DNA of 64,000 nucleotides from a virus. A program made the translations under genes and the position numbers. The notes beneath the pieces were generated by a model. The model was not told the DNA's origin and did not search any database. It saw nothing but the letters and a program-made list of their open reading frames with translations. The DNA lies in IMG/VR virus record IMGVR_UViG_3300044712_002679, positions 244,406 through 308,405 of that record; one strand, 5' to 3'. Positions 1 to 57,318 of the stretch are shown in pieces (within the stretch, counting starts at the first letter, position 1; each line of letters starts with the position of its first letter).

Positions 1-2208
1 AAAATACAAGTAATTGAAGACATAAATGAAGATTTTATTTATATTGATCCTGAATTTATTTTGTTTGATGATTCTTTAATACCCTATATTAAAAATTTAT
101 ATAATTTTGATATATTAGTAAAACACACTAATCCAAAAGAACATTTTGGCCCACATCATTTTATTAATAATAATAAAAAGTTATTAAATGATATTAATAT
201 AAATACAGATTTATATGACGATAAATATTTTTGTACTGATATAATAGGCATGAATTTAAAATTTAAAGAAAAATATATTTCAAATGTCAAAAAAATTGAA
301 CAAGTAATAAAAAATAATATGATTAATGGAAATTATAAACATTACAACATTATATTAGATAATTTATTAATTTATTTAACTTATTTAAATAATAATCTTA
401 AAAGTTATGAATTTATTTCACCTGATGATATCGAATTGGGTATTAATTATTGTGCTGATAAATATAAATTTACAATATTTGAAACTAACAATAGCATAAC
501 ACAAAATATAAACCTTGTAAAAAATAAAATTCATAGAGATTTTCCTAATAATTTTATTAATATTGATAATTATGAAAACAATTATAAACCATATAATTAT
601 CATTTCAAATATAAATTGTCATTTTGTGTTTCGTGTATGAATAGGTTAGAATTTTTAAAAAAAACATTATTACACAATTTAAATTTAATTAATTCGTTAA
701 CTGAAACATATAATATTGAATTAGTGCTATTAAATTATAATAGTGAAGATGATATGGATGAATATTTGAATCAAGATATTTTTAAACAATTTATAGATGA
801 TAAAATTTTAATTTACAAAAAAGTTAATAATAAAGATTTTTTCCATAGAACAAATGCTAGAAATATAGCACATTTAGCTGCAACTGGTGATATATTATGT
901 AATTCGGATGTTGATTGTTATCTATCCGAAGAATTAATAAAAGAAACATATGATGCTTTCAATGAACACGGTTTAAATAATATAATTTTTTGTGGTTCAA
1001 CAAATTATAATTTTGGATATATTTGCTTGAGTAAATATAATTTTATTTTACTTGATGGTTATAATGAAAATATTTATTATTATGGTGCTGAAGATTATGA
1101 TATTTTAATAAGATTTTGTTTAAAAACAAAAAATAAAATTAAAATATTAGAAAAAGATTATTTGAATTTACTAATAAATCATAATGATTCTTTTAGATCA
1201 ATAACACAATATAATAAATGGACTACAAATTTTGTTAATTCTATACTAGTATATTACAATTTAAAAAACAATATAACTAATCCCAATAATGGCATTTTTG
1301 GTAAAGATGAACACATAAAAATTAAAGATGTATTCAATTATGATTATTTTAATAGGTATGTTTTAAATGATGACGAAATTACTAATATGTGGAATGATAT
1401 AAAAAGTATTAATAATGATAATTGGCTTAATCATATTATAATGAAAAAATTCAATAATTTTTTAGAAAACAATTGTTTAAATCATAAAATTATTGAAATT
1501 ACGACAATGGTTGGTTGTAAAAATATGTGTTTATATTGTCCACAAGATGCATTTTTGAAAAATTATAAAAGTGATGTAAAATATCTTACTGTTGATATTT
1601 GGAAAGATATTTTAAAAAATATAGATAAAAATGTAGAAATTCAATTTTCTGGATTTGCAGAAAATTTTATGAATCCTAATTTTCCATCTATATTAAAATA
1701 TACACATAAAAATGGATATAAAATAACAATATTTACTACATTAGAAGGTTATAATGAAAATATTGATTTATCTGATATTGAAATAAACAATTTATATTTT
1801 CATGAATATAACGGAAAAAGTTTTAATAGAAAAAAATTTTATTCTAATGTTGATAATTTTTTAGCAAATAATAAAATAATAAATTATCATGGCATTTTGA
1901 AAATTGGTCAACAAGAAGAATTCACTCGGGCTAATAATAACAAAAGAAAAAAAACTGAACATAAATTTGGTAAAATTAAATGTAATTTCGGTAAAGATTT
2001 TTTATGGCAACAAAACAATTTACTATTAAATGGTGATGTTTATATTTGTTGTCAAGATTGGGGGTTAAAACATAAAATTGGTAATTTAAAATCTGATAAT
2101 TTGTATTCTAATAATATAAATAATGAACGATTAAAATTACAAAATTTACAATTAATGGAAGATTCTGATATTATTTGTAGAGATTGTGAATTTTCAAAAA
2201 AAATATAA
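1..2208 (+). CDS. 5'-partial at the window edge. Bifunctional glycosyltransferase (GT2-like DxD region) fused to a C-terminal radical SAM domain.
   Basis: The reading frame is open from nt 1, and the ORF track starts at an internal TTG. 'NSDVDCY' is a DxD-like motif. 'GCKNMCLYCPQ' is the CxxxCxxC radical SAM cluster motif. Confidence 0.5.
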   Translation, partial: KIQVIEDINEDFIYIDPEFILFDDSLIPYIKNLYNFDILVKHTNPKEHFGPHHFINNNKKLLNDININTDLYDDKYFCTDIIGMNLKFKEKYISNVKKIEQVIKNNMINGNYKHYNIILDNLLIYLTYLNNNLKSYEFISPDDIELGINYCADKYKFTIFETNNSITQNINLVKNKIHRDFPNNFINIDNYENNYKPYNYHFKYKLSFCVSCMNRLEFLKKTLLHNLNLINSLTETYNIELVLLNYNSEDDMDEYLNQDIFKQFIDDKILIYKKVNNKDFFHRTNARNIAHLAATGDILCNSDVDCYLSEELIKETYDAFNEHGLNNIIFCGSTNYNFGYICLSKYNFILLDGYNENIYYYGAEDYDILIRFCLKTKNKIKILEKDYLNLLINHNDSFRSITQYNKWTTNFVNSILVYYNLKNNITNPNNGIFGKDEHIKIKDVFNYDYFNRYVLNDDEITNMWNDIKSINNDNWLNHIIMKKFNNFLENNCLNHKIIEITTMVGCKNMCLYCPQDAFLKNYKSDVKYLTVDIWKDILKNIDKNVEIQFSGFAENFMNPNFPSILKYTHKNGYKITIFTTLEGYNENIDLSDIEINNLYFHEYNGKSFNRKKFYSNVDNFLANNKIINYHGILKIGQQEEFTRANNNKRKKTEHKFGKIKCNFGKDFLWQQNNLLLNGDVYICCQDWGLKHKIGNLKSDNLYSNNINNERLKLQNLQLMEDSDIICRDCEFSKKI

Positions 2209-4168: not shown

Positions 4169-5774
4169 TATCTTTATCACGTTTTGCTAATATTGGATAT
4201 TTATCAAGTAATTTCCAGTCTTCGTTCCAAGTTTCCAAATAAGATAATGTTTTAATATTATTTAATTTGCAAATTATACTAAATATTGATTGTGATCTAT
4301 TTTCAATAAATCCAATTAAATTTGGTGATATTGAAGGACTATCATCTGAAAGTGAAAAATTATTATAATAAGAATTTAACCACTGTGTTATTATATTTAT
4401 AGATTTATTACATTTTTTTATAAAAATTATACCCGAACCAATTTGACTTGTTTCTATTATTTCTTTATTATGTCTTACATTAAAATAATCTAAAACATCA
4501 CCCTTTGCCCATTCACATTCAAGAAAATGATGCACATCATACAACGATTTTCCTTGAAAAGCTAATATATCATTTTTATTCGCAATATCAAAATATTCCA
4601 ATAATCTATTATATCCATTTTTATTAATATGACATCCAACATCTGAATATAGTAGAATATCATTATTATTCATTTTATCTAATTCTTGTAATATAATTTG
4701 AGGTTTCCAACACCAATAACCAAATCCACGACTACCATAAATAAGATTATTTTTGAAACGATTAACAAAATCTTTATTTAAATCTTTTTCGTTGTAAATA
4801 GAAATAACATCATAATTCATTTCTTTGGCTTGTCGTTCAATTCTATCTAGGCTATTTTGCATTCTCGAATCAGCAAATGATAAAAATATTTTTTTTTGAT
4901 GAATAAATTGTGTCTTATTAACAATTTTAAATTTTTGTAATATATTTTTTAAATATTTTCTAATGAATAAATCATCAAAAATATTTGACCAATATTGTTT
5001 TGCTTGGCAATTTTTATCCAATATCCATTTACTTTCGTTTTCATAATATGAAAAACATATAAAAATTTTATTGGGATTTTCCATATTTTCTTTAATATGT
5101 GTAAAACAAAACGGACCAGAAGCTCTACCTATAATGACATCAACTTTTGTTGATAAATATGAAATTTCTAATAAATTATTTGAATAATTTAAAATATTAT
5201 TAACTGTTATGATATTGGATTTTTGCAAAAAACTATCATTTGTCATAATAAAAGTTATATTAGGATATATATTTGATAGATAATCTATTATTGGATCAAA
5301 ATCAAAATTTTCGGATTGTCCTGACCATACTGAATTATTACAAACCAACACATATCTTTTATTTGATTGAATAAAATTATCAATATTTTTAGTTTCTATT
5401 TTTTGAAAATCAACAGTTGGTATATAAAATTCCATCGGATTTATACTAATATTTAATTGATTATAAATATCACAAAATAATATATAATTTGACTTTAAAC
5501 TACATCCATATGTTAAATATTTAAAATTTTGTTGTCCTATCCACGTATTAATATACAAATCATCACCGATTTGTATTACAGATGTATCATTATGGGGTGT
5601 ATATTTTCGAATCTGATCGACATCAACATCTTTTAATATAGAAAAATCATTATTATGACAATAATAATGATTAATTCCAAGTTTATTTTTTATGTCTTTT
5701 ATAAATTCTTTTGAATAAAAAACATCACCATTGTGATAATTGTTAAAAAAATATACATTTGATGGTTTATTCAT
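4161..5774 (-). CDS. Two-domain protein. The N-terminal about 280 aa are paralogous to ORF 30463-31308. The C-terminal domain carries a W-x-W/DxD-like sugar-transferase-like signature.
   Basis: N-termini are near-identical ('YFFNNYHNGDVFYSKEFIKDIK...VIQIGDDLYINTW'). The C-terminus has 'SRGFGYWCWKPQI...ILLYSDVGCH'. Confidence 0.35.
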   Translation of the reverse strand: MNKPSNVYFFNNYHNGDVFYSKEFIKDIKNKLGINHYYCHNNDFSILKDVDVDQIRKYTPHNDTSVIQIGDDLYINTWIGQQNFKYLTYGCSLKSNYILFCDIYNQLNISINPMEFYIPTVDFQKIETKNIDNFIQSNKRYVLVCNNSVWSGQSENFDFDPIIDYLSNIYPNITFIMTNDSFLQKSNIITVNNILNYSNNLLEISYLSTKVDVIIGRASGPFCFTHIKENMENPNKIFICFSYYENESKWILDKNCQAKQYWSNIFDDLFIRKYLKNILQKFKIVNKTQFIHQKKIFLSFADSRMQNSLDRIERQAKEMNYDVISIYNEKDLNKDFVNRFKNNLIYGSRGFGYWCWKPQIILQELDKMNNNDILLYSDVGCHINKNGYNRLLEYFDIANKNDILAFQGKSLYDVHHFLECEWAKGDVLDYFNVRHNKEIIETSQIGSGIIFIKKCNKSINIITQWLNSYYNNFSLSDDSPSISPNLIGFIENRSQSIFSIICKLNNIKTLSYLETWNEDWKLLDKYPILAKRDKDII

Positions 5775-10702: not shown

Positions 10703-11536
10703 ATGAAAAAAAATAATACAATTGAGAACATCGGTACAATATGTAACGATACTCGTAGTTCCGTAGTAAATACAATTTACTGCACTAAAGATTATTCTAT
10801 GTTTAAAACACAAACAGGGAATAGAAGTAAAAATAACAGACACATTAATGAATTGATAAAATCTATCAATTTAGAAAATTTATTACATGCTCAACCAATA
10901 TGTGTTAATGAAAAATTTGAAATTATTGATGGTCAACATCGTTTTCATGCAGCAAAAGAAATTGGAAGTAAAATTTATTATTATTTAGTAGATGGTTTAG
11001 GTATTAAACAAACTCAACGTCTCAATTCTAATTTAAAAAATTGGAATGCTGATGATTTTATGCATAGTTTTGCAGATAATGGTAACCAAGCGTATATTGC
11101 ATACAGATTATTTCATGAACAAAATTGTGATATTATTGACCACAATTTAGCACAAGTGTTATTAGGTGGGTATAATACATATAATGGTGCATATGGTCAA
11201 TTATTTAAAGATGGAAAATTTGTTGTGAAAGATTGGTCTTTAGCGGTTGACCGAATGGAAAAACTTCGTGATATTCATCATCAACTTTTGGTTATTAAAG
11301 GTATACCAGAACGAAGAGAATGTATGTATGCGTTATTAAATATATTTAAAGATGTAAATTACAATCATTCTAGAATGTTACAAAAACTTGCAATTCATCC
11401 AAAAGACATATTGCGAATTTTGCGTAGACGTAGTGATTTTCTTGTTGAATTATGTGAAATATATAATTATCGTGCGGGTAGCGAAGAAAAAAAGTCAAAT
11501 TTAAATGCTAGATTATTAATGCTAGAAAATATTTAA
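10703..11536 (+). CDS. ParB-like nuclease (ParB N-terminal domain) protein
   Basis: 'PICVNEKFEIIDGQHRFHAAKEIG' resembles the ParB/Srx 'DGHHR' motif region. Confidence 0.45.
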   Translation: MKKNNTIENIGTICNDTRSSVVNTIYCTKDYSMFKTQTGNRSKNNRHINELIKSINLENLLHAQPICVNEKFEIIDGQHRFHAAKEIGSKIYYYLVDGLGIKQTQRLNSNLKNWNADDFMHSFADNGNQAYIAYRLFHEQNCDIIDHNLAQVLLGGYNTYNGAYGQLFKDGKFVVKDWSLAVDRMEKLRDIHHQLLVIKGIPERRECMYALLNIFKDVNYNHSRMLQKLAIHPKDILRILRRRSDFLVELCEIYNYRAGSEEKKSNLNARLLMLENI

Positions 11537-11571: not shown

Positions 11572-12843
11572 TTAACTAAAATTTACAATAATTTTATTAC
11601 TTGAAAAACTACCAAGTTTGCAATATACTTCATCACCATCATTTAATGATGATGTTATGAATGTATTTGTTGTACCAACTTGTACTCTTTCATTTACACG
11701 CCATTGGTAAGTATAAGTATCAAAACAAGTGTTTACAGCAACAAATGTAAGTTCATCCCCAAAATATATTGAACCTGTGGGATAACGACTAATTGATAAA
11801 CTTTGTGGAATAATTTGAACCGCTATTTCATTACTTATTGTGGATGTTCCAAATAAAACATCAAAATCATCTTTTATTTCACATATTACCCGATCATCAT
11901 CATTAAATTGATTATATGAAAAAACAGAATTATTTGAACCCACATTTACATTATTAATTTTCCATTGATAAAACATTGGTGCATCGTAACCTACAACATT
12001 AGAAAAGAAATTAACAACTTCACCAAAACAAACAGTATTACCAAATGATCCAATAGATATTGAATTTGCTCCAGGTGTTAGATCAAAATTTAAAATATTT
12101 GTTTCATTTTTTAAAATATTCATAGTAACACTTTTTGTAATATAACCAACCGCTTTGACTTTTATAATATTTGGTCCACTAGGAACAGTAAATGAATATA
12201 AGCCATTTTCATCTGTTGTAGTCCACAATCCTGAACAAAGTACTATTGCACCCTCGATTGGACCAGACCCCGTTGTAATGCCACTAATAATACCAAATTC
12301 ACCGTTAAAGAAATTACAATCATAATATGTGACACCATCTGCTATCGAATTAAAATAATTTCCACCTCTACATGAAACTTTACTTAAAAATTGATTTTCT
12401 ATTACAAATCCTGGTGTAACATCATTATAATATCGGTTTATAACAACTTCATTGTTGTATTTATTGACATATAATACCTTATACCCAAATCCAAATTCAA
12501 GATCAAATGGATCGCTTAAATATGTATCAGAATTTTTATCATATGTATTATCGAGATTAAAAATTCTAAGTAAATCTATATTTGGATCAGCATACGTAAT
12601 ATAAACAATATCATCAATTTCAAAATTACTTTCTACTTCAGTATAAAGTTTAAGATATCCATTCCAATTGGAATAATTACTTAAAATCTTAACTGAATTT
12701 TTAATGTTTATATAATCATTTGTTTTTTGTGCAATTTGTTGTTGGATTAATTCCATATTCCCATTTATAGAACTAGATACATTAGATGATGTTGCACTAA
12801 TTGAAGTTGTATTTTTTGGACTTGGTATTTTTATTGTTGGCAC
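11572..12843 (-). CDS. structural or adhesin-like protein with a carboxypeptidase-regulatory-like beta-sandwich domain and Ig-like repeats
   Basis: 'GAIVLCSGLWTTTDENGLYSFTVPSGPNIIKVKAVGY' is the CarboxypepD_reg signature. The C-terminal half has repeated 'Y.W..N...VG' units. Confidence 0.5.
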   Translation of the reverse strand: MPTIKIPSPKNTTSISATSSNVSSSINGNMELIQQQIAQKTNDYINIKNSVKILSNYSNWNGYLKLYTEVESNFEIDDIVYITYADPNIDLLRIFNLDNTYDKNSDTYLSDPFDLEFGFGYKVLYVNKYNNEVVINRYYNDVTPGFVIENQFLSKVSCRGGNYFNSIADGVTYYDCNFFNGEFGIISGITTGSGPIEGAIVLCSGLWTTTDENGLYSFTVPSGPNIIKVKAVGYITKSVTMNILKNETNILNFDLTPGANSISIGSFGNTVCFGEVVNFFSNVVGYDAPMFYQWKINNVNVGSNNSVFSYNQFNDDDRVICEIKDDFDVLFGTSTISNEIAVQIIPQSLSISRYPTGSIYFGDELTFVAVNTCFDTYTYQWRVNERVQVGTTNTFITSSLNDGDEVYCKLGSFSSNKIIVNFS

Positions 12844-13254: not shown

Positions 13255-13536
13255 TTAAATTACATTATATTTTTTTGCTTTTTTTGCTGCCAATATTTTA
13301 TCAATATCATTAATATTATCATATATATCTTTAGGAACATTAAAAATATAACTTCCACATCTTACTAATGTTGCGTTTTTTCCATATGTTTGTTTTTTCA
13401 TACCTGAAATACTACCAGATGCTGAAAAATTTGGATATTGATGAATATCAATTTTATCACCATCTGCTACTGAACATCGCTTAACAGCATATTCAAATAA
13501 TTTATCAAAACTTTGTAAATATTTCATAATTACCAT
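13255..13536 (-). CDS. small protein of the MKY.K..E / KKYN[IV] paralogue family
   Basis: Internal start 'MKYLQSFDKLFE'. Ends 'AKKAKKYNVI'. Confidence 0.35.
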   Translation of the reverse strand: MVIMKYLQSFDKLFEYAVKRCSVADGDKIDIHQYPNFSASGSISGMKKQTYGKNATLVRCGSYIFNVPKDIYDNINDIDKILAAKKAKKYNVI

Positions 13537-14843
13537 CTTTTTTTATTGTCATCTGCACTAAAATTTGAAATTTTATTGATGTTTTTTTCGTTTGGAAGTG
13601 GATCAAAATGATATTCTTTTTTTATTTCATTTCTAGTGTGTCCCCATCTTGAATCATCCCCTTTATCATTTTTGACTGAATATAATATACCACCACGATC
13701 ATTTGTGTGCCAAACATAATATGCATTAATATGCCACAATACACCATTATCATCTAGCATATCATAAAATGCTTGTTTATTATCATGCGAAAAAGAATCT
13801 ACACATAGCGGATTATTATCAGCAATTAAATAATCTTCATCAGTAATTATAATATCATCTTTTGTGAATTTATAATTTTTTGGAATTACAATGATATATT
13901 CTTTTTCTTTTTTATTGCTTACATAATCTTCTTGATTAAATAACTCTTCTGTTAATTCAGATGATATTATATTCACTTTATCCGATTCAACACGAATAAT
14001 AAACCCATCTTTATTTGAAAAATATTTAGCAATTGGTAAACTAGATGTAAATGATAAGAATTTACCATCTGTTAATTTGTGCAAACCATTTTTTAAAATA
14101 TAATCAAAAACTAAATCATAACGAAGTTTTACAGTTTTACTATTTTTCATTTTTGTTTCAGTTGCCAATTTATTTAATTCTTCAAATTCTTTACCAAGTA
14201 CTTTTTTTGCTTTATCATACATCACACCTCTTATTCCACGATATAAATATTTTGGGATTTTTAATTTTTCTTTTTTTAATTTGTAATGGTTATAGAAACC
14301 ATATAACCAAATGTATTTAATTATATCATTTACTTTTTTTATTCCATCTTCTGTTTTTGTGGTTAACGCATTAACACCACCAAATGTAACAAATCGTGAA
14401 TCTACTTTTTTATCTGTATTTATTATTGGTTCTAAATCAGAATTTTTACGCAATATATTTAAACCATTTGCTGAATTAAAATTACCAAAAATATTTGTCC
14501 CTTGATATCCTTGTGAGGACAATATTAAAAATTGTGTTTGTGTTTTTAAATCTGGAAATATATTTGATCCGGTTTTAGGTATTTTATGTCCAATTTCTGC
14601 AATTGAATGTAAAATACTTTTTGACACAGAATCTTTCCAATTAAATATCATATTATCTTTAATTTTATGGTATATGTTTAAATCCATATCCATTAATAAA
14701 ACTAAATCATCAATATTTTTAAATCCAGTTAAGATTGCATTTTTCAATTTTAATTTAAAATCAGACCAATCAGTATATTGTATATTGTCTTTAAAATTAC
14801 CAAATTTTGATTCATTATAATGACTAAATTTTAATATCATCAA
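13530..14843 (-). CDS. putative mono-ADP-ribosyltransferase (R-S-E clade), fused to an uncharacterised C-terminal domain
   Basis: Ordered motifs are 'KYLYRGIRG' (aromatic-Arg), 'FLSFTSSLP' (STS-like) and 'EKEYIIVIP' (E-x-E followed by a hydrophobic strand, cf. Vip2 'EKEVLL'). The spacings are compatible with an ART fold. Confidence 0.4.
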   Translation of the reverse strand: MMILKFSHYNESKFGNFKDNIQYTDWSDFKLKLKNAILTGFKNIDDLVLLMDMDLNIYHKIKDNMIFNWKDSVSKSILHSIAEIGHKIPKTGSNIFPDLKTQTQFLILSSQGYQGTNIFGNFNSANGLNILRKNSDLEPIINTDKKVDSRFVTFGGVNALTTKTEDGIKKVNDIIKYIWLYGFYNHYKLKKEKLKIPKYLYRGIRGVMYDKAKKVLGKEFEELNKLATETKMKNSKTVKLRYDLVFDYILKNGLHKLTDGKFLSFTSSLPIAKYFSNKDGFIIRVESDKVNIISSELTEELFNQEDYVSNKKEKEYIIVIPKNYKFTKDDIIITDEDYLIADNNPLCVDSFSHDNKQAFYDMLDDNGVLWHINAYYVWHTNDRGGILYSVKNDKGDDSRWGHTRNEIKKEYHFDPLPNEKNINKISNFSADDNKKRW

Positions 14844-14986
14844 CTAATTATTTTTTTCATTATATATAAAAAATATAAATAAAGAAAAAACAAATGAATG
14901 TTTTAAGTTTTATTTGATGGTAATGGCTATACCATCATCATTAAAAAACTTTTAAAAAATTTTTATATATAAAAGAAAAAATAATT

Positions 14987-15340
14987 ATGAAAAATATTAA
15001 AAGTATAAATGAATTTTTGAATGAAGATATTGATAAATTTGATTTTGATCATGATTTTTCTGAAGAAGAATTGAACCAACTTGAAGATGATGTTAAAGAT
15101 ATTACAATAGAAATCACAAAAGATGATATGGATGAATATTCTGTTAATTATCAAATAGATAATATAGAAATAGAAGGTAAATTAATATCATATAATAGTG
15201 GTAGAGCTAAAGAATATAAATTTGAACCATCATTTATTGATGATGAAACAGAAGAATATTATGATGAAAATTGGGAAGATATTGAAGAAGAAATTTTAGC
15301 ATATTTTTGGGAAAATAAAAAAGAAATTGATAGTAAGTAA
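14987..15340 (+). CDS. hypothetical highly acidic protein
   Basis: The ORF is about 35% D/E. Confidence 0.35.
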   Translation: MKNIKSINEFLNEDIDKFDFDHDFSEEELNQLEDDVKDITIEITKDDMDEYSVNYQIDNIEIEGKLISYNSGRAKEYKFEPSFIDDETEEYYDENWEDIEEEILAYFWENKKEIDSK

Positions 15341-15361
15341 ATAATTTTTAAAAAATAATTA

Positions 15362-16246
15362 ATGAACATATTAAGTTTATTTGATGGGATGTCTTGTGGA
15401 CAAATCGCATTAAATCGAGTTGGAATTAAATATGATAAATATTTTGCATCTGAAATAGATGAAAATGGAATTCAAGTAACAATGGATAATTATCCAAACA
15501 CCACACAATTAGGTGATGTTACAAAAATAATTAGTTCAAATTTACCACAAATTGATCTTTTAATTGGTGGATCACCTTGTCAAGGGTTTTCTTTTGCTGG
15601 AAAACAATTAAATTTTAATGATCCTAGAAGTGTGTTATTTTTTGAATTTGTTCGGTTGAAGAATGAATGCAAACCTAAATATTTTCTTCTAGAAAATGTT
15701 AAAATGCGAAAAGATTTCCAAGATATTATAAGCGGTTATCTTGGTGTTGAACCAATTGAAATAAATAGTTCAACAGTTTCTGCCCAAGATCGAAAAAGAT
15801 TATATTGGACAAACATTCCAAATATTACACAACCAACAAACAAAAATATTTATCTTAAAGATGTTTTAGATATTTTTGTTGATGATAGCTTATTTTTATC
15901 TGATACAATAGCATCAAGGTATTTTACTGTGCCATGCACTATAAATAAAAATAAATCATGTGTTATTGGAAAATTGTCTAATCATCAGGGTGATAGAATA
16001 TTCGATATTAATTGTAAAGGTAGTTCACTAAGTGCTAGTGGTGGCAATAATGGTGCAGGTGGTTGTAATATTATACACGACCCAACTACAAATAAATTAA
16101 GAAAATTAAGTGTATCAGAATGTGAACGTTTACAAACTGTGCCTGAAAATTATACAAAATTAGCAAAAAAGACACAACGGTATAAAATGCTTGGCAATGG
16201 TTGGACAGTTGATGTTATTTCACATATATTTAAAAATATAATTTAA
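15362..16246 (+). CDS. DNA (cytosine-5)-methyltransferase
   Basis: N-terminal 'LSLFDGMSCG' is motif I (FxGxG). 'GGSPCQGFSFAGK' is the catalytic PCQ motif IV. 'ENV' is motif VI. C-terminal 'GNGWTV' is motif X. Confidence 0.85.
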   Translation: MNILSLFDGMSCGQIALNRVGIKYDKYFASEIDENGIQVTMDNYPNTTQLGDVTKIISSNLPQIDLLIGGSPCQGFSFAGKQLNFNDPRSVLFFEFVRLKNECKPKYFLLENVKMRKDFQDIISGYLGVEPIEINSSTVSAQDRKRLYWTNIPNITQPTNKNIYLKDVLDIFVDDSLFLSDTIASRYFTVPCTINKNKSCVIGKLSNHQGDRIFDINCKGSSLSASGGNNGAGGCNIIHDPTTNKLRKLSVSECERLQTVPENYTKLAKKTQRYKMLGNGWTVDVISHIFKNII

Positions 16247-17154
16247 TGAATGTATTAAGTCTCTTTGACGGAATGTCCTGTGGACAAATCGCACTAAATA
16301 GAATTGGTATCAAATATGATAAGTATTATGCATCAGAAATTGATAAACATGCTATTAATGTAACACAAACACATTTTCCAAATACGATACAATTGGGTGA
16401 TATTACACAAATCAAAAAATTAGATTTACCACAAATAGATTTAATGATGGGTGGATCACCATGTCAAGGTTTTTCGTTTTCTGGTAAACAATTAAATTTC
16501 AATGATCCAAGAAGTAAATTATTTTTTGAATTTGTTAGATTAAAAGATGAAATTAATCCTAAATATTGGTTATTGGAAAATGTAGTAATGAAAAAAGAAT
16601 ATGAAAATATCATTTCACAATATTTGGGTGTTGAACCAATAAAAATAAATAGTAGTTTAGTATCTGCACAAAATAGAGAAAGATTATATTGGTCAAATTT
16701 AAAAATAATTCAACCAACAGACAAAAACATAAATCTTGATGATATTTTAGAATATGATGATCAAATAAATCCTGGTGCTATTCGTGGACGAAAATTAAAC
16801 AAAGCTACAATTATTGGAAGACGATTAAATGATCGTGGTGTAAGAGATGATTATAATAAAGATATTCCTATTACACAATGTTTAGAAGTAAGGGCTACTA
16901 ACACCAATAAAAGTAATTGTCTAACAACCGTTGAAAAAGATAATGTATTAACTACAATGCCTATTGGAAGACATCCTGATGCGTTTATTAATAAATTACC
17001 ATTTAGATATTATACATTAAAAGAATACTGTAGATTACAAACCGTACCTGATGATTATTTTGATGGTATAGTATCAACAAATCAAGCAAAAAAAATGATT
17101 GGTAATGGTTGGACAGTTGATGTCATTGCACACATTTTGAAAAATATTAAATAA
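16246..17154 (+). CDS. DNA (cytosine-5)-methyltransferase, tandem paralogue of 15362-16246
   Basis: Motifs I, IV, VI and X are the same. The N-terminal half is about 75% identical. The target-recognition region differs. Its ATG overlaps the upstream stop (TAATG). Confidence 0.85.
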   Translation: MNVLSLFDGMSCGQIALNRIGIKYDKYYASEIDKHAINVTQTHFPNTIQLGDITQIKKLDLPQIDLMMGGSPCQGFSFSGKQLNFNDPRSKLFFEFVRLKDEINPKYWLLENVVMKKEYENIISQYLGVEPIKINSSLVSAQNRERLYWSNLKIIQPTDKNINLDDILEYDDQINPGAIRGRKLNKATIIGRRLNDRGVRDDYNKDIPITQCLEVRATNTNKSNCLTTVEKDNVLTTMPIGRHPDAFINKLPFRYYTLKEYCRLQTVPDDYFDGIVSTNQAKKMIGNGWTVDVIAHILKNIK

Positions 17155-17292: not shown

Positions 17293-17835
17293 TTAATATC
17301 TTTCTGGATATTTAATATAACTTTGTAATTCTCGCCAATCTATATCATCTATACCTTGATATCCTTTATTAATAAAATATTGATTAACTTCATCTTGGCT
17401 TAAATCTTTAATGTCATTAACAATATTATTAATATATCTTTTTGAAACATATTCTTTTCTTCGTATAACTGGCATTTTTTTAATGCCCATTTTCAACATT
17501 GCAATCGCTCGATGTCTACCTTCTTGTGCTGAACTATTTACTGTATAATAACAAATAGGAAATTTGTCACCTTTTTTAAAATCTTCCACATATTTATCTA
17601 CCAATTTATTATTAACTACATTTAATTCGAATTCATATGATTGCTTAAATCCTTTAGCTACTTGTTGAATATATTCTTTAGGACTAATAAAAATTAATTC
17701 TTCGACAGTTTTTTTCCATAATAAAGAATATAGTGGATTTTCATATGCCGGATAATATCTATACAGACTTTTCATATCAAAATACTGACAGCCGTCACAT
17801 ATATTATATTCATTAAATTCCAACAAATGATTCAT
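17293..17835 (-). CDS. ParB/Srx-like domain protein
   Basis: 'NSSAQEGRHRAIAMLKMG' resembles the ParB 'GxRRxxA' box. Confidence 0.3.
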   Translation of the reverse strand: MNHLLEFNEYNICDGCQYFDMKSLYRYYPAYENPLYSLLWKKTVEELIFISPKEYIQQVAKGFKQSYEFELNVVNNKLVDKYVEDFKKGDKFPICYYTVNSSAQEGRHRAIAMLKMGIKKMPVIRRKEYVSKRYINNIVNDIKDLSQDEVNQYFINKGYQGIDDIDWRELQSYIKYPERY

Positions 17836-19228: not shown

Positions 19229-20275
19229 ATGAAAAAATGTTTTTTATGTAATAAAGATTTGAAACAAAGTGAAAGTTCGCATATGAAAAAATGTGCAAAA
19301 AGTTTTAATATTGAATTTAATAAAGATTTATTAAAATATAATCAAATTCAATTTGAATATTTGGACATTTTAGATTGTTCATCTGATAATATTAACAAAT
19401 TAATAAATGAAAATGGATTAGTTTTAACTGATTTTATAAAAATATATAATTTAAAAAAATCACATTATTATTTTTTGATAAAATATCATAATATAAATAT
19501 AGATGAAAAAAAATATAAAAAAAATGTTACCGAAAATCGTAAAAAAACTACATTTGAAAAATATGGTGTTGATTCTATTAATAATGTGTTAGAAATTAAA
19601 CTTAAAAAAATGAAAACCAGTATTAAAAATTATGGTGTTGATAATCCATCAAAAAATATTGATGTGATAAATAAAATAAAAAAAACTAAAATAGATAAAT
19701 ATGATGGTTATCCAAATCCATTTAAAAATAAATCTGAAGATGAAATAAAGAAAATAATGAATTTTTGTCATCAAGGATTTAAAAATATGTATAATAATTT
19801 ATCTGAACAAGATAAGAAAATAATGATTGATAATTTACATATTGGTAGAAAAAAATGGTGGAATTCGTTATCGGAAGATGAAAAACATCAAATAATAAAT
19901 AATAGAACAAGTTTTAAGATGTCTAAAATAGAAAAAAGAATACTTGATATTTTAGACTATATGCAAATAAAATATATTTATCAATTTTGGGTTAATCGTT
20001 TATCATATGATTTTAAAATATTAAATACAAATGTCATAATTGAAGTAAATGGTGATTATTGGCACGCAAATCCCATACTATATCATAAAGATCAAATTAT
20101 TAAGTATCCTAATAATGTAAAAATAACAGCATCAGAAATATGGTATAAAGATTTTTTAAAAAAAGAAGTAGCATTAAAATATGGTTATAAGATATTATAT
20201 ATTTGGGAAAATGATATGAAAACATATTCAGATGTCGATTTAATTAATATTATTAATAATCAATTAATTCTTTGA
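19229..20275 (+). CDS. Zn-finger protein with a C-terminal Vsr-like / DUF559-type PD-(D/E)xK endonuclease domain
   Basis: The start is reassigned to 19229, because the 19052 start overlaps the divergent gene. 'EVNGDYWHANP...ALKYGYKILYIWEND' parallels Vsr 'VDGCFWH...GWRVLIVWE'. The N-terminus has 'CFLCNKD...HMKKC'. Confidence 0.5.
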   Translation: MKKCFLCNKDLKQSESSHMKKCAKSFNIEFNKDLLKYNQIQFEYLDILDCSSDNINKLINENGLVLTDFIKIYNLKKSHYYFLIKYHNINIDEKKYKKNVTENRKKTTFEKYGVDSINNVLEIKLKKMKTSIKNYGVDNPSKNIDVINKIKKTKIDKYDGYPNPFKNKSEDEIKKIMNFCHQGFKNMYNNLSEQDKKIMIDNLHIGRKKWWNSLSEDEKHQIINNRTSFKMSKIEKRILDILDYMQIKYIYQFWVNRLSYDFKILNTNVIIEVNGDYWHANPILYHKDQIIKYPNNVKITASEIWYKDFLKKEVALKYGYKILYIWENDMKTYSDVDLINIINNQLIL

Positions 20276-24701: not shown

Positions 24702-24965
24702 TCATACATTTATATTATTTTTATGAAATATTTGATCAAAATTCAAATATTTATTTGCAGATATTATAAGATCATCTTTTAACATATTTTTTATATTATT
24801 TATATCAATAAATCTATTTTCTTTATCATATAAATATGTATTATAAAATGGTTTATTATCAATAATTGTCGAATATCTTATCATCGTTTTTGAACAATAT
24901 GGTGAATAATATTGTGTAATTTCATCATATTGAATTTCTGGGTATCTTTTTAAAATACCTATCAT
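24702..24965 (-). CDS. hypothetical protein
   Basis: ORF whose start overlaps the gmd stop (ATGA). Followed by a further ATGA-coupled 48-aa ORF at 24563-24705. Confidence 0.3.
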   Translation of the reverse strand: MIGILKRYPEIQYDEITQYYSPYCSKTMIRYSTIIDNKPFYNTYLYDKENRFIDINNIKNMLKDDLIISANKYLNFDQIFHKNNINV

Positions 24966-25993
24966 TAAGTTCCAATTAAACTTTTTCCACCAGTTTTTAA
25001 ATCGTGTTCCATCATAATCTTAACCAATTCTTTAAACTTCACCTTTGGTTCCCATCCTAAAATTGTACGAGCTTTTGTTGAATCACCAAGTAACAGATCT
25101 ACTTCAGATGGTCTAAAATATTTTGGATCAATTTCAATTACAACATTACCTGTATTCTTATCTATACCTTTTTCATCTACCCCACTTCCAACCCATTCGA
25201 TATCCATGTTAACATATTTACAAGCTTCTTCGATGAAATCTTTGACACTATACATTATCCCAGTAGAAAGTACAAAATCTTCTGGGGTGTCTTGTTGTAA
25301 CATTAACCACATACCATACACATAATCGGGAGAATATCCCCAATCTCTTTTTGAATATAAATTGCCTAATTTTAAAGTTTTTTGTTTTCCGTTTTTTATT
25401 TTTACTAATGCTTCAGTTACTTTCTTTGAAACAAAAGTAGACCCCCGACGTTCTGATTCATGATTAAACAATATTCCATTACTTATAAACATATCATATG
25501 ATTCTCTATAATTTTTACAAATATGGTAGGCGTAAAGTTTTGCCACACCATAAGGAGACTGTGGGTTAAATTGTGTTTTTTCAGTTTGTGGTATTTCTAA
25601 AACCTTTCCATATAATTCACTCGTACTAGCATTATAAATTTTAGATTTTAATTCCAATAAACGACAACTTTCGAGTACATTTAGGACACCTATTGCATCA
25701 ACTTGTGCAGTATATAATGGTTGTGTAAATGACACTTGAACGTGACTTTGTGCAGACAGAATATATATTTCATCAGGTTTAACTTTTAATAATATATTTT
25801 GAATAGACGATATATCAGTGATATCACCATAATATAAATGTATTTTATCATAAATATTTTCAAGTCTACCAGTGTTAAATGAACTACTTCTTCTAATCAT
25901 CCCATGTACATCATAATCTTTATCTAACAGTAATTCAGCAAGATAACTTCCATCTTGACCTGTAATTCCTAACAATAATGCTTTTTTCTTCAT
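24965..25993 (-). CDS. gmd: GDP-mannose 4,6-dehydratase
   Basis: '[42 protein letters not shown]' is nearly diagnostic for GMD. Full length is 342 aa. Confidence 0.9.
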
Positions 25994-27862: not shown

Positions 27863-30457
27863 TTACATATTTTTATTTACGATATCACATATATACATAA
27901 TATCCATACCTGTTAAATCTGGGTTATTAGGTACATATAGACCATACTTATCTACAATATCAGCAAAATCAAATGATTGTTTACCATATTTTTTTATCCA
28001 ATATGGTTGGTTTCCAATTGATCCACAGACTAATGGTCTACAATCAACACCACCATCATCTAATGCTTTTGCAATTTGTTTAATATTCGGATGAATTATA
28101 GGATATGCAAAATTTGCGATTTTACAATGTTCAAAATCTTTAATCTTCCAATAATCATTTTTGATAAATTCTTGATATAATTCATAATTCCATTGTCTAA
28201 ATATACAATTTTTTTCAATTCTGTCCAATTGATGTATTCCAATAAATGCTTGCAAATCAGTTGATCTTAAATTGAATCCTGGATAATAAAATGTATATAA
28301 ATCTTTAAAGTCATCAACATCAAATCCTTCTTTTAATTTTGATTTAAAAGGTTCATCTAAATCACGATCCCAACCATGTGCTCTTATACTTTTAAGAATA
28401 CAATACAAATCATAATCATCAGTACAGACCATCCCACCTTCTATTGTTGAATTATGTAAACATATAGGTTGCCAACCACCAACAAAATTTTCTGTATTTG
28501 GAACACAAAAATCATAAACATATTCATCATTACTATTTATTGTTTCTTTTGATCTAACACACAATAACATTAAATCATTATCGACGAATTTTTTTAATTT
28601 ATCATTATTTAAATATTCAGACTTAAACAATTTAATAAAATCACAACATTTATATGATACGTTATTTTTATTTCTTTTGGAAAATCTTTCAATTTTAAAT
28701 GTTAATTTTTTGTATGGTAATGTATTTTTTATATCAGAAACGATTATTGAATTATCTGATATTTCTACATTAGATATAATGAATTTATATTGTATTTTAT
28801 TATTTGTTTTTCTACCACATATCATTCTATTATTTTCTTTAGATTCAATAATAGAACCATTTAATCCTAACATATTAAATAAATATGAAATTTCATTTAT
28901 TAAATTTTTTGATACACTTGATACCGAAATTCTATTATCATCTACATTTGTGCCATCGCCAGCAAAATAACCATATAAAAATGATGATATATTTTCGTAA
29001 TTTGAATGAAATATAAATTTTGGTATTTGTTTATTTGATGCTCCAGATTTTATATTCAAAAAATCTCTAAAAAATATTAATAAAGTTTCAGATGATATGC
29101 AAATTGCATGGCTATGTTTATCTTCAACAATATCATCATATGATTCTAAATTAAATATTTTTTTTATAATATTTTTTACATCCTTAATATATTCAATTTC
29201 ATTTATATTAAATGAAAAACATAATCCACTTTTTTTGTATGATCCTTCGGCTAAAAAATAACCAATCAATCGACATAAATCTTCTGAAACTTCATATTTA
29301 ATTGGAATATATTTATATTTAGGTGTGTTTTTTTTAGCAATTTTTAAATTATCAGTTTCTGTTATCAAATATTCCAAGGGTAAAACCTTTCTTCTTTTCC
29401 AATTATCTTTGTTTTTATTATCTTTACTATTCCATTTGAACTTTATTTTATCTAAATCAGATTCGTTATGGTTTATTGTAAAATATGTATTTTCAGTTTT
29501 TTTACAAAAATCTAAAAAATTTAATTCTGTTATGGGGTTTGGTTGTGGAATTTTAGATGGTACTACAATATAATCACCAATATTAATATCATTTCCTTTT
29601 TTTGGTATAATGTTAAAATTTTTTGGATCATAAGAAAAAACACTATGATCTTCGGTAATTTCAACATATCTACCATTTGATAATTTTATTTTAAAAACTA
29701 TTTTGTTGTTTAGTTCGTGTTTTATTATATTTGAAGGTGATTTATATTGTGTATTATAATCATCATCGAATGTTATTATTTTTATTTTATTTACATCATA
29801 TTGATATTTATTATAGATATTTTTAATATTATCTATATTAAAAATATCATTTTCATCTAAATATGGTATTGGTGTATTAGATGACACTGACATATGATGA
29901 CCATAATAAAAGGAAAAAGAACTCATTAGACCAAATGATCCTGTTTTAATATCATTATAAAAAGAACCAATACTTTCACATGAATCTTCTAATAAAATAA
30001 TGTTATTTTGTTCACATATTTCTAAAATTTCTTTCATTTTATTAGGAAATCCTAATACGTGAACTAACATTATAACAGAAGGTTTGTGTTCTTTCACAAG
30101 TTTTTTTAGGTGATCAATATCTAATCCTAATGTTTCTTTATCACATTCACAAAGAATTGGATTAAGCCCCAATTGAATAATTGGTGAAACTGTTGTAGTC
30201 CATGACACCGCAGGAACGATTATATTTTTATTTATTAGTCTATCAGACATCAATAAACTATAAATCATTGCTAGATTTGCAGATGAACCAGAATTAAGAA
30301 AAACTGAATATTTTTTATTTTGATATTTAGAATATTTTTCTTCAAATTCTACAGTAAGCTTATTTTTAGTTAAAATAGGATTCGTTTTTAACCATTCTAT
30401 TAAAAGGTTTATATCATTTGCGTCAATTGTGTCTTTAACTAATTTAATTCGTTCCAT
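27863..30457 (-). CDS. DegT/ColD-type PLP-dependent sugar 3-dehydratase/aminotransferase, interrupted by an intein that encodes a LAGLIDADG homing endonuclease
   Basis: N-extein has the DegT fold ('...GSFGLMSSFSFYYGHHM'). C-extein is 'STIEGGMVCTDD...RAHGWDRD...GFNLRSTDLQAFIGIHQL'. The intein has block B 'EITEDHSVFS', two LAGLIDADG motifs ('LIGYFLAEGSY', 'LYGYFAGDGTN'), block G 'VYDFCVPNTENFVGGWQPICLHN' and Ser at +1. The conserved PLP lysine position reads His (verified on the DNA), as in ColD and E1 dehydratases. Confidence 0.75.
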   Translation of the reverse strand: MERIKLVKDTIDANDINLLIEWLKTNPILTKNKLTVEFEEKYSKYQNKKYSVFLNSGSSANLAMIYSLLMSDRLINKNIIVPAVSWTTTVSPIIQLGLNPILCECDKETLGLDIDHLKKLVKEHKPSVIMLVHVLGFPNKMKEILEICEQNNIILLEDSCESIGSFYNDIKTGSFGLMSSFSFYYGHHMSVSSNTPIPYLDENDIFNIDNIKNIYNKYQYDVNKIKIITFDDDYNTQYKSPSNIIKHELNNKIVFKIKLSNGRYVEITEDHSVFSYDPKNFNIIPKKGNDINIGDYIVVPSKIPQPNPITELNFLDFCKKTENTYFTINHNESDLDKIKFKWNSKDNKNKDNWKRRKVLPLEYLITETDNLKIAKKNTPKYKYIPIKYEVSEDLCRLIGYFLAEGSYKKSGLCFSFNINEIEYIKDVKNIIKKIFNLESYDDIVEDKHSHAICISSETLLIFFRDFLNIKSGASNKQIPKFIFHSNYENISSFLYGYFAGDGTNVDDNRISVSSVSKNLINEISYLFNMLGLNGSIIESKENNRMICGRKTNNKIQYKFIISNVEISDNSIIVSDIKNTLPYKKLTFKIERFSKRNKNNVSYKCCDFIKLFKSEYLNNDKLKKFVDNDLMLLCVRSKETINSNDEYVYDFCVPNTENFVGGWQPICLHNSTIEGGMVCTDDYDLYCILKSIRAHGWDRDLDEPFKSKLKEGFDVDDFKDLYTFYYPGFNLRSTDLQAFIGIHQLDRIEKNCIFRQWNYELYQEFIKNDYWKIKDFEHCKIANFAYPIIHPNIKQIAKALDDGGVDCRPLVCGSIGNQPYWIKKYGKQSFDFADIVDKYGLYVPNNPDLTGMDIMYICDIVNKNM

Positions 30458-56373: not shown

Positions 56374-57318
56374 ATGAAAAATATGAAATATACAATAAAT
56401 GATCGAACAAATTTTCCTAGAACAATAGGAGTTTATAAAATAAGTTTTACTAATAATACTGGAAAAGTTTATATTGGAAGTACTTTCAATAAATTGGGTT
56501 TTTATGAAAGATGGAGAAAACATTATAAAGAATTGTCTCAAAATAAATCACAGTTACCTGCTTTACAAAACGCAGTTAATAAATATAGTATAGATAATAT
56601 AAGATTTGAAATTTTAGAAGAATGTAAAAAAGAAGATTGTGTTAATAGAGAACAATATTATATAGATAAATATAATTCGTATAATGATGGATATAACGCT
56701 AGACCTTTCGCAGCAAACAATTTAAATAAAAAAACATCAGATGAAACTAAAGCTAAATTAAAAATCACATTTAAAAATAAACGACAATTAAGATTTGAAG
56801 AAGTTAATAATTTATATCAAAATGGTTTAGCCATTAATAACATTATGAAAAAATTAAAAATGAGTAAAAACACTATTAGTACACTTCTAAAAGAAAATAA
56901 TATTAAAGTAGAAAATAATAATCGAGGAATAAAAAAGACAGAAATATATCAATATGATTTAATTGGTAATTTTATTGAAAAATTTAATAGTCTACATTCA
57001 GTTAGCAAAAAAATGAACATTGGAACAAATGCAATTAGATTAGTAATAAATGGCAAATGTAAGCAATCAAATGGGTTTTATTATTCATATAAATATTTAG
57101 AAAAAAATGAAGTTTTAGATATATTAAATGAATTAAATAGTAAAATGAGAATACAAAAATATATTAATATTATACAAAAAGATGAATTTCAAAATATTAT
57201 TAAAATTTGGAAAGACTTGAATGAAATAAAAAATTCAGACAATATTTTTATACCAGGAAGTGTTAGTTATGCAATAAAAAATAATAAAAAATATAAAGAA
57301 TTTTATTGGGAAATATAA
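56374..57318 (+). CDS. freestanding GIY-YIG homing endonuclease with C-terminal NUMOD-like DNA-binding repeats
   Basis: 'GVYKISFTNNTGKVYIGST...ERWRKHYK...N' is the GIY-YIG catalytic core (I-TevI/Seg-like). HTH-like repeats follow. Confidence 0.8.
   Translation: MKNMKYTINDRTNFPRTIGVYKISFTNNTGKVYIGSTFNKLGFYERWRKHYKELSQNKSQLPALQNAVNKYSIDNIRFEILEECKKEDCVNREQYYIDKYNSYNDGYNARPFAANNLNKKTSDETKAKLKITFKNKRQLRFEEVNNLYQNGLAINNIMKKLKMSKNTISTLLKENNIKVENNNRGIKKTEIYQYDLIGNFIEKFNSLHSVSKKMNIGTNAIRLVINGKCKQSNGFYYSYKYLEKNEVLDILNELNSKMRIQKYINIIQKDEFQNIIKIWKDLNEIKNSDNIFIPGSVSYAIKNNKKYKEFYWEI

Follow-up and report, generated by a model that had tools for sequence, protein, structure and literature searches.

Orphan DNA methyltransferases (MTases), which lack a partner restriction endonuclease (REase), are reported to be the commonest annotated genes in the variable islands of phage genomes and are interpreted as a countermeasure against restriction-modification (RM) systems (PMC7468147). 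The locus considered here, which resembles these phage orphan-MTase loci in varying between related genomes, includes two adjacent genes, designated A and B, in a 64,000-nucleotide stretch of DNA (the window; positions 244,406 to 308,405 of the IMG/VR virus record IMGVR_UViG_3300044712_002679). Both genes encode C5-cytosine MTases, and their products differ in the target-recognition domain (TRD). The Bacillus phages SPR, phi3T and rho11s, studied in the Trautner laboratory, carry multispecific C5 MTases, with several TRDs in one polypeptide. A cultured precedent for the separate pair is found in Croceibacter phage P2559Y (NC_023614), whose genes P2559Y_0040 and P2559Y_0041 are, like A and B, two adjacent, co-oriented MTases of the same family (both match the core of A) with different TRD types and no REase, again in a phage genome. 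The locus in the window is probably a variable array of orphan anti-restriction C5 MTases in a huge phage, and none of the four alternative explanations weighed below fits as well. The pair and its parts are as follows.

15362 to 16246, plus strand: MTase A, C5-cytosine DNA methyltransferase with an A-type (HhaI-like) TRD, 294 amino acids (aa), assigned from PF00145, TIGR00675, motifs and an AlphaFold2 model
15839 to 16111, plus strand: TRD of A, approximately aa 160-250, flanked by motifs VIII (aa 142-146) and IX (aa 253-261)
16244 to 16248, plus strand: TAATG junction, a 1-base overlap between the A stop codon and the B start codon, read from the sequence
16246 to 17154, plus strand: MTase B, C5-cytosine DNA methyltransferase with a B-type TRD, 302 aa, assigned from PF00145, TIGR00675 and motifs
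16723 to 17019, plus strand: TRD of B, approximately aa 160-258, assigned from homologue identities and the ratio of nonsynonymous to synonymous substitution rates (dN/dS)

An earlier note, made from the letters of the window, had described two adjacent MTases overlapping at TAATG, with near-identical catalytic motifs and diverged TRDs, and each part of this description was borne out. The coordinates of the pair are exact, and the overlap can be read directly: the last A of the TAA of MTase A (16244-16246) is the first base of the ATG of MTase B (16246-16248). Overlap or abutment is also the rule at junctions in the tandem MTase arrays of other phages. Both proteins match PF00145 over its full length, from profile position 1 to 322 or 323 of 324, with E = 2e-45 and 156 bits for A and E = 8e-41 and 140.9 bits for B against a cutoff of 22. 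The order of motifs is canonical in both, with motifs I to VIII followed by the variable TRD and then motifs IX (aa 253-261 in A, 260-268 in B) and X (aa 278-282 and 286-290). Identical strings occur in motifs I (FDGMSCG, aa 7-13), II (ASEID, aa 29-33), IV (GGSPCQGFS, aa 69-77), VI (LLENV, aa 109-113) and X (GNGWT); motif VIII (aa 142-146) differs, being QDRKR in A and QNRER in B. Motifs I, IV (P-C-Q, containing the nucleophilic cysteine) and VI (E-N-V) are invariant positions in the family alignments. The two proteins are 54% identical overall by BLASTP (E 5e-106) and 73% identical over aa 1-160, whereas their TRD stretches are unalignable (<10% identity). Each protein has a single variable region of approximately 90 aa between motifs VIII and IX, hence one TRD each rather than the multispecific architecture of the SPR and phi3T enzymes. 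The term "Dcm-like", used in the same note, holds at the level of the TIGR00675 "dcm" superfamily, where both proteins score above the cutoff of 100.65 bits (A 149.6, B 139.5), and fails for the Dcm subfamily of E. coli, whose model NF007772 gives 36.8 bits for A and 18.3 bits for B against a cutoff of 710. The GC content at third codon positions is 12% in both genes, indicating that both are fully adapted to the genome. By sequence, A and B are intact C5 MTases of one family that differ essentially only in the TRD.

The variability of the array is apparent from close relatives of the locus, which were obtained by exact-protein look-ups; degenerate-pattern scans of IMG/VR and Joint Genome Institute (JGI) metagenomes gave, among the matches listed, relatives of at most 60% identity. 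In the close relatives the flanks of the MTase block are conserved, with a gene for a 436-aa protein on one side and, on the other, an open reading frame (ORF) equivalent to the one at 17293 of the window followed by a NUDIX gene. Between these flanks the window and contig L177 carry a short acidic ORF, A and B; contigs L174, L175, L178 and L179 carry a further MTase, C, before the acidic ORF, A and B; and contig L004 (1644-5595) carries C, the acidic ORF, A, another MTase, D, and B, with the shorter contig L005 covering the acidic ORF, A, D and B. Both C and D belong to the A/B family and have further TRDs. All close relatives examined retain A and B, and the number of MTases is 2, 3 or 4. 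Some relatives also have an extra gene downstream of the MTase locus, encoding 398 aa (L004 and L176) or 396 aa (L177).

A broader survey of the family comprised 170 loci with MTases of the A/B family, collected from IMG/VR, JGI metagenomes and look-ups. Two to five MTases are present at 37 of these loci (22%), in 33 tandem arrays, and most junctions are overlapping or abutting. Approximately 49 TRD types were distinguished among the surveyed loci, using motif VIII and IX anchors to cut out each TRD; cutting from a global MAFFT alignment had merged everything into one cluster. In none of the 15 distinct typed arrays does a TRD type occur twice, where shuffling gives an expectation of 2.7 (P = 0.028). 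The B-type gene comes last in six of the seven array signatures that contain it. Among the largest arrays, those of the environmental phage contigs L058 (1682-6918), L048 (5135-8585) and L062 hold four or five C5 MTases in tandem, all of different TRD types. A single 329-aa MTase in L022 (2823-3812) appears to combine two TRD segments, an HhaI-like (A-like) one and, after it, a B-like one, and an MTase in L019 (6001-6993) also carries a B-like segment; both similarities are of low significance (E 1e-3 and 3e-5 in a search of three sequences), and the L022 protein may be multispecific, corresponding to the A-B pair fused into one gene.

C5 MTases flip the target base out of the helix, attack its C6 with a cysteine and transfer a methyl group from S-adenosylmethionine (AdoMet), and the residues required for this mechanism are all present in A and B. 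The two genes would be transcribed together, probably with the upstream acidic ORF, and the overlap of their reading frames suggests that they may also be co-translated. Each enzyme would then flip its target cytosine, with Cys73 attacking C6 and AdoMet donating the methyl group, and would methylate C5 within its own short motif on replicating phage DNA. Two TRDs would give two motifs and with them resistance of the phage to two distinct restriction specificities of its hosts, and the gain and loss of cassettes would tune the MTase set to the hosts encountered. Several points weigh against an anti-restriction array of this kind. Among the BASEL coliphages there is no simple link between phage MTase genes and resistance to restriction (PMC8594841). 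The phi92-like phages are highly RM-sensitive in the laboratory (PMC8594841), and these sensitive phages carry a distant relative of the B-type TRD. The non-redundancy of TRD types within arrays is a modest statistic (P ~0.03) that depends on TRD clustering thresholds. Finally, REases are very diverse, and a novel one may be hidden in the unannotated 436-aa ORF (13530-14843) or in ORF 17293.

The acidic ORF stands directly before the pair and is a possible, though uncertain, third member of the module.

14987 to 15340, plus strand: very acidic ORF, 117 aa, 21 nucleotides (nt) upstream of A

It has an isoelectric point of 4.05, with 39 aspartate or glutamate residues against 12 lysine or arginine residues, and gave no match in any family library searched. 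In all close relatives examined, the gene immediately before the A-type MTase encodes a homologue of 111-120 aa. In the window, minus-strand genes flank a short block on the plus strand that consists of the acidic ORF, A and B. In size and charge the acidic protein is reminiscent of DNA mimics that counter restriction, such as Ocr of phage T7. A Shine-Dalgarno-like sequence lies upstream of only 4 of 98 genes in the window, while an A-rich motif (AAAAAATAAT-like) is located just before many ATG codons, for example at 14976-14986, 15350-15361 and 16232-16245, and AAAAAT is present in 50 of 96 upstream regions, a frequency approximately 5.5-fold that expected. For MTase B, the preceding A-rich motif is formed by the last codons of MTase A (..IFKNII*). 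Scans of the window for promoters and terminators gave nothing beyond shuffled expectation. A more elaborate and quite speculative version of the array reading, which should be held only tentatively, builds on these features: the locus could be a recombination-driven, modular anti-restriction island composed of an Ocr-like acidic DNA mimic followed by a string of MTase cassettes, in which near-identical cassette ends, with the A-rich start signal lying in C-termini of the form ..KNII* or ..KNIK*, would permit in-frame insertion, deletion and exchange; the constraint on the TRD of B could then reflect a very short, broadly protective motif.

Whether an REase accompanies the MTases bears on the first alternative, in which A and B supply the protection in a phage restriction or nuclease system comparable to those of chloroviruses, with a nearby nuclease degrading unmethylated DNA of the host or of competitors. 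The genes around the block offer some material for such a system. ORF 10703 matches the ParB-like PHROG 12305 (5.8e-29), ORF 19229 has a nuclease-like character (PHROG homing/HNH endonuclease, ~1e-10), and the 436-aa gene upstream and ORF 17293 downstream accompany the MTase block wherever that flank was assembled in relatives. No REase family was detected by Pfam, PHROGs, PADLOC or NCBIfam among the ORFs from 10.7 to 20.3 kb, however, a negative that upholds the earlier remark that no cognate REase was obvious and that carries its own limit, as novel REases escape profile searches. The sole PADLOC match to an REase, in ORF 11575-12756, has E 0.0096 and no significant stretch, and the same ORF gave matches to carboxypeptidase-regulatory-like domains together with a weak one to a tail-protein PHROG. 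No cognate REase gene of the kind that defines a type II RM system was therefore found adjoining the MTases. A-type and B-type MTases furthermore occur in other phages without these neighbours, and the number of MTases varies from 2 to 4 among close relatives with no matching change in the flanking nuclease candidates. A restriction or nuclease system is accordingly an improbable explanation, and A and B fit the description of phage-encoded orphan MTases as far as profile searches reach. Homologues of the A/B family occur in phages with terminase and portal genes.

The identities proposed for these neighbours in the earlier note fared unevenly. A ParB-like nuclease domain at 10703 is supported by the PHROG match, although the ORF falls below the Pfam and NCBIfam cutoffs. 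The same assignment for ORF 17293 could not be sustained: this ORF has no significant match in any library searched, and a short QEGRHRAIAM...KKMPV motif is its sole resemblance to ParB. Nor is ORF 19229 a Vsr-like endonuclease, since it has no match to Vsr (PF03852) at E<=0.01 and instead matches DUF7487 and PHROG homing-endonuclease families (1e-10 to 1e-11). Free-standing genes resembling homing endonucleases are found here (19229-20275, plus strand, DUF7487 with a nuclease-like C-terminus) and at 56374-57318 (plus strand, NUMOD1/I-HmuI-like), with further matches to GIY-YIG and homing-endonuclease PHROGs elsewhere in the window.

A second alternative assigns methylation a role internal to the phage, such as the timing of expression, discrimination during replication or packaging, or evasion of mismatch repair. 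B-type proteins are unusual in that the TRD (88-93% identical) is more conserved than the core (only ~80%), and this conservation across very different phages could reflect a conserved internal target. The weak correlation between phage MTases and RM resistance in the BASEL data (PMC8594841) would also be accommodated. Against this, C and D come and go among close relatives and array composition is highly variable, a pattern expected of arms-race genes and not of core regulators; the argument is qualified by the constant retention of A and B in the close relatives examined. An internal role is likewise improbable, and a variable array of orphan anti-restriction MTases accounts better for the coming and going of cassettes.

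The origin of the pair concerns a third alternative, which takes the duplication and divergence of specificity proposed in the earlier note as a recent event in situ, with a new specificity arising in one of the two copies. Adjacency, shared orientation and overlap of the genes, 73% identity of the cores over aa 1-160 and identical motif strings would all suit such an event. Identities over the trimmed core alignment argue otherwise. The nearest cores to that of B are all B-type, at 79-86% identity, and come from unrelated phages, while B and A share 70%. Outside the close clade of A, the nearest A-type core is 77% identical to A and several cores with other TRDs are 75-76.5% identical, all closer than B. 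The two are therefore not mutual closest relatives on core identities, as young paralogues should be. Both TRD types are moreover widespread: A-type homologues range from 60-90% identity over their full length, B-type homologues form more than 100 clusters at approximately 80-87% identity, and both often occur as solo genes in phage contigs of 160-362 kb, including one of 362 kb, one of 160 kb that also encodes a cell-wall amidase and a GP88 family protein, and one of 177 kb with a T4-type portal and gp13.

Substitution patterns point the same way. Relative to the orthologues in L004 and L175, dN/dS is approximately 0.10-0.13 for both genes (~0.10 for A), and within the TRDs it is 0.17-0.24 for A and 0.04-0.07 for B. 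The TRDs are under purifying selection, and these low values indicate specificities that are maintained, not diverging. Identity at synonymous codons between A and B is flat along the gene at ~0.6, which gives no sign of a young duplicate. Recent gene conversion across the cores was considered and rejected because of the same flat profile, leaving a weak hint confined to the first ~90-180 nt of B. There, the first ~180 nt (16246-16425) have an identity of 0.74 to the L004 orthologue (4687-4866), compared with 0.87-0.89 further downstream, and over the first 90 nt the identity to A of the same genome (0.83) exceeds that to the L004 orthologue (0.74). This last feature could be counted in favor of recent duplication, and it may reflect exchange at the 5' end among the tandem paralogues A and B, for which the signal is weak. 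On balance, a recent or local duplication followed by divergence of specificity is very improbable. A and B are best regarded, on these comparisons, as paralogues of one phage MTase family representing two long-established TRD lineages, and the duplication that created the A and B types must, if the core identities are a guide, predate the divergence of many phage groups.

That the pair might be false was a further concern, as identical TRDs would have pointed to duplication during assembly; the TRDs are clearly not identical, being unalignable. A Logan contig from SRR26046407 contains the same A-B pair, and diverged versions of it (85-90% aa identity, same gene order) occur on contigs of at least seven other JGI or ENA samples. 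An assembly artefact, in which the tandem pair would be spurious and stem from a repeat that was collapsed or joined chimerically, has in its favor solely the general risk attached to repeated genes in metagenome assemblies and can be dismissed as having next to no probability, because the TRDs are unrelated in sequence and the pair recurs both in the SRR26046407 assembly and, 10-15% diverged, in the other samples.

Comparison with solved structures assigned no firm specificity to either enzyme. For both cores the best match by sequence to the Protein Data Bank (PDB) and by Foldseek is the catalytic domain of DNMT3A/3B (E 1e-24 to 1e-26), with M.HhaI and M.HaeIII following as the next PDB sequence matches. 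The AlphaFold2 model of A has a predicted local distance difference test score (pLDDT) of 90, and its best whole-chain superposition is on M.HhaI, with a template modelling score (TM-score) of 0.85. Within the TRD, HQGDRIF...SLSASGGN of A aligns with GQGERIY...TLSAYGGG of M.HhaI, in segments that are presumably the recognition loops of the HhaI-DNA structure; alone this alignment is not significant (E 1.4), so that a GCGC-like target for A is a low-confidence guess. The TRD of A has no match among cultured phages, and among solved structures it matches only M.HhaI. For B, the TRD has no PDB sequence match and the AlphaFold2 model is unreliable, most of residues 177-252 having pLDDT <50. Among cultured phages, this TRD comes closest, at ~48% identity, to the C5 MTases of Bacteroides phage BU2 and of phi92-like coliphages. 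A literature search found no published specificity for the A/B MTase family or for the phi92-like and BU2 relatives.

Oligonucleotide statistics gave no target motif, and they cannot assign targets in the window because tetramers composed only of G and C occur 0-8 times in it. Other words are depleted. CATG was observed 75 times against 184 expected under a Markov model (z about -8), ATCGAT is absent against 12.3 expected, and GATC shows a mild deficit (0.75). Odds ratios are 0.72 for CpG and 1.28 for TpG/CpA. The deficit of CATG and ATCGAT is the pattern that would be expected from avoidance of restriction sites which the phage does not methylate.

The window derives from a huge bacteriophage of ~0.5 Mb with 24% GC. 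Cluster representatives identical to A and B are located on a 501,337-bp JGI contig, and a bulk family scan found phage genes in the window, including T4 gp30.3 (3.6e-55), a CHAP endolysin, and tail and virion-structural PHROGs; the contig and these matches together indicate a huge phage. The window has a GC content of 24% and ~98 genes in 64 kb, among which no tRNA genes were found, and several homing endonucleases were detected in the same bulk scan. An origin from a giant eukaryotic virus was first suggested by the 24% GC, a major-vault-protein homologue, an intein and sugar-nucleotide enzymes, and was rejected because the mimivirus promoter AAAATTGA is not enriched (29 observed against 34 expected) and because of the phage gene matches.

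Other genes of the window deserve mention in their own right. A DegT/DnrJ-type aminotransferase (27863-30457, minus strand) is split by an intein with a LAGLIDADG homing-endonuclease domain. An 813-aa protein (40166-42607, plus strand) contains major-vault-protein shoulder and repeat domains (PF11978, 2e-26; PF17795, 1e-9), and a protein of this type is unusual in a phage genome. A fusion of family-2 glycosyltransferase and radical-SAM/SPASM domains (61-2208, plus strand) is followed by genes for a GT11 fucosyltransferase-like protein and an epimerase, and with the GDP-mannose 4,6-dehydratase further along at 24965-25993 they make up a sizeable set of glycan-synthesis genes. A cation-efflux (CDF) transporter is encoded at 43121-43999 (plus strand); one is also present in the unrelated 362-kb contig L008 (16134-17033), ~5 kb from a B-type MTase. 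Another B-type MTase, P0126, is 87% identical to B and is encoded on a 4.7-kb contig labelled by NCBI "Candidatus Dojkabacteria bacterium", a lineage of the Candidate Phyla Radiation (CPR). This label is either a hint of a host or the result of a mis-binned phage fragment.

Taken alone, the A-B locus matters little, as orphan MTases, single or tandem, are a well-known form of phage counter-defence for which P2559Y provides a precedent. The pair is real, correctly delimited and ordinary in kind, and the tandem-array format is common. Its modest value lies in showing that "duplicated" phage MTases are assortments of old TRD lineages and not fresh duplicates, and its close relatives document cassettes gained and lost at a single hotspot in a huge phage, where 2, 3 or 4 MTases are present. 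The two TRD types are also of some value, especially B, which is very abundant and highly conserved, and they are possibly useful as new reagents for 5-methylcytosine (5mC).

Set beside the known systems, A and B share with E. coli Dcm and Vsr (CCWGG methylation coupled to very-short-patch repair) only membership of the C5 MTase superfamily; they fail the Dcm subfamily model widely, and ORF 19229 is not Vsr. The likeness to DNMT3A/3B extends to the catalytic core and an LSLFDG-type motif I, but A and B are without PWWP or ADD domains and their TRDs differ, so that the resemblance is confined to the core and silent on CpG specificity. M.HhaI (GCGC) resembles A in its two-domain architecture, in motif order and in whole-chain fold (TM-score 0.85), and most recognition-loop residues are kept, as Q-G-D/E-R-I-F/Y and S/T-L-S-A-x-G-G. 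Identity between the two enzymes nevertheless reaches only ~27%, M.HhaI is paired with an endonuclease of its own, and resemblance in the loops is not enough by itself to make GCGC the target of A. From P2559Y the phage in the window differs in its size of ~0.5 Mb and its 24% GC, in the particular pairing of TRD A with TRD B, and in a TRD type, that of A, without a representative in cultured phages. The multispecific enzymes of SPR, phi3T and rho11s would share with the A-B pair a phage strategy of counter-restriction, in which several cytosine specificities are obtained through modular TRDs on a conserved core. In those enzymes the TRDs are strung along one polypeptide, whereas here each TRD is borne by a separate protein of ~300 aa.

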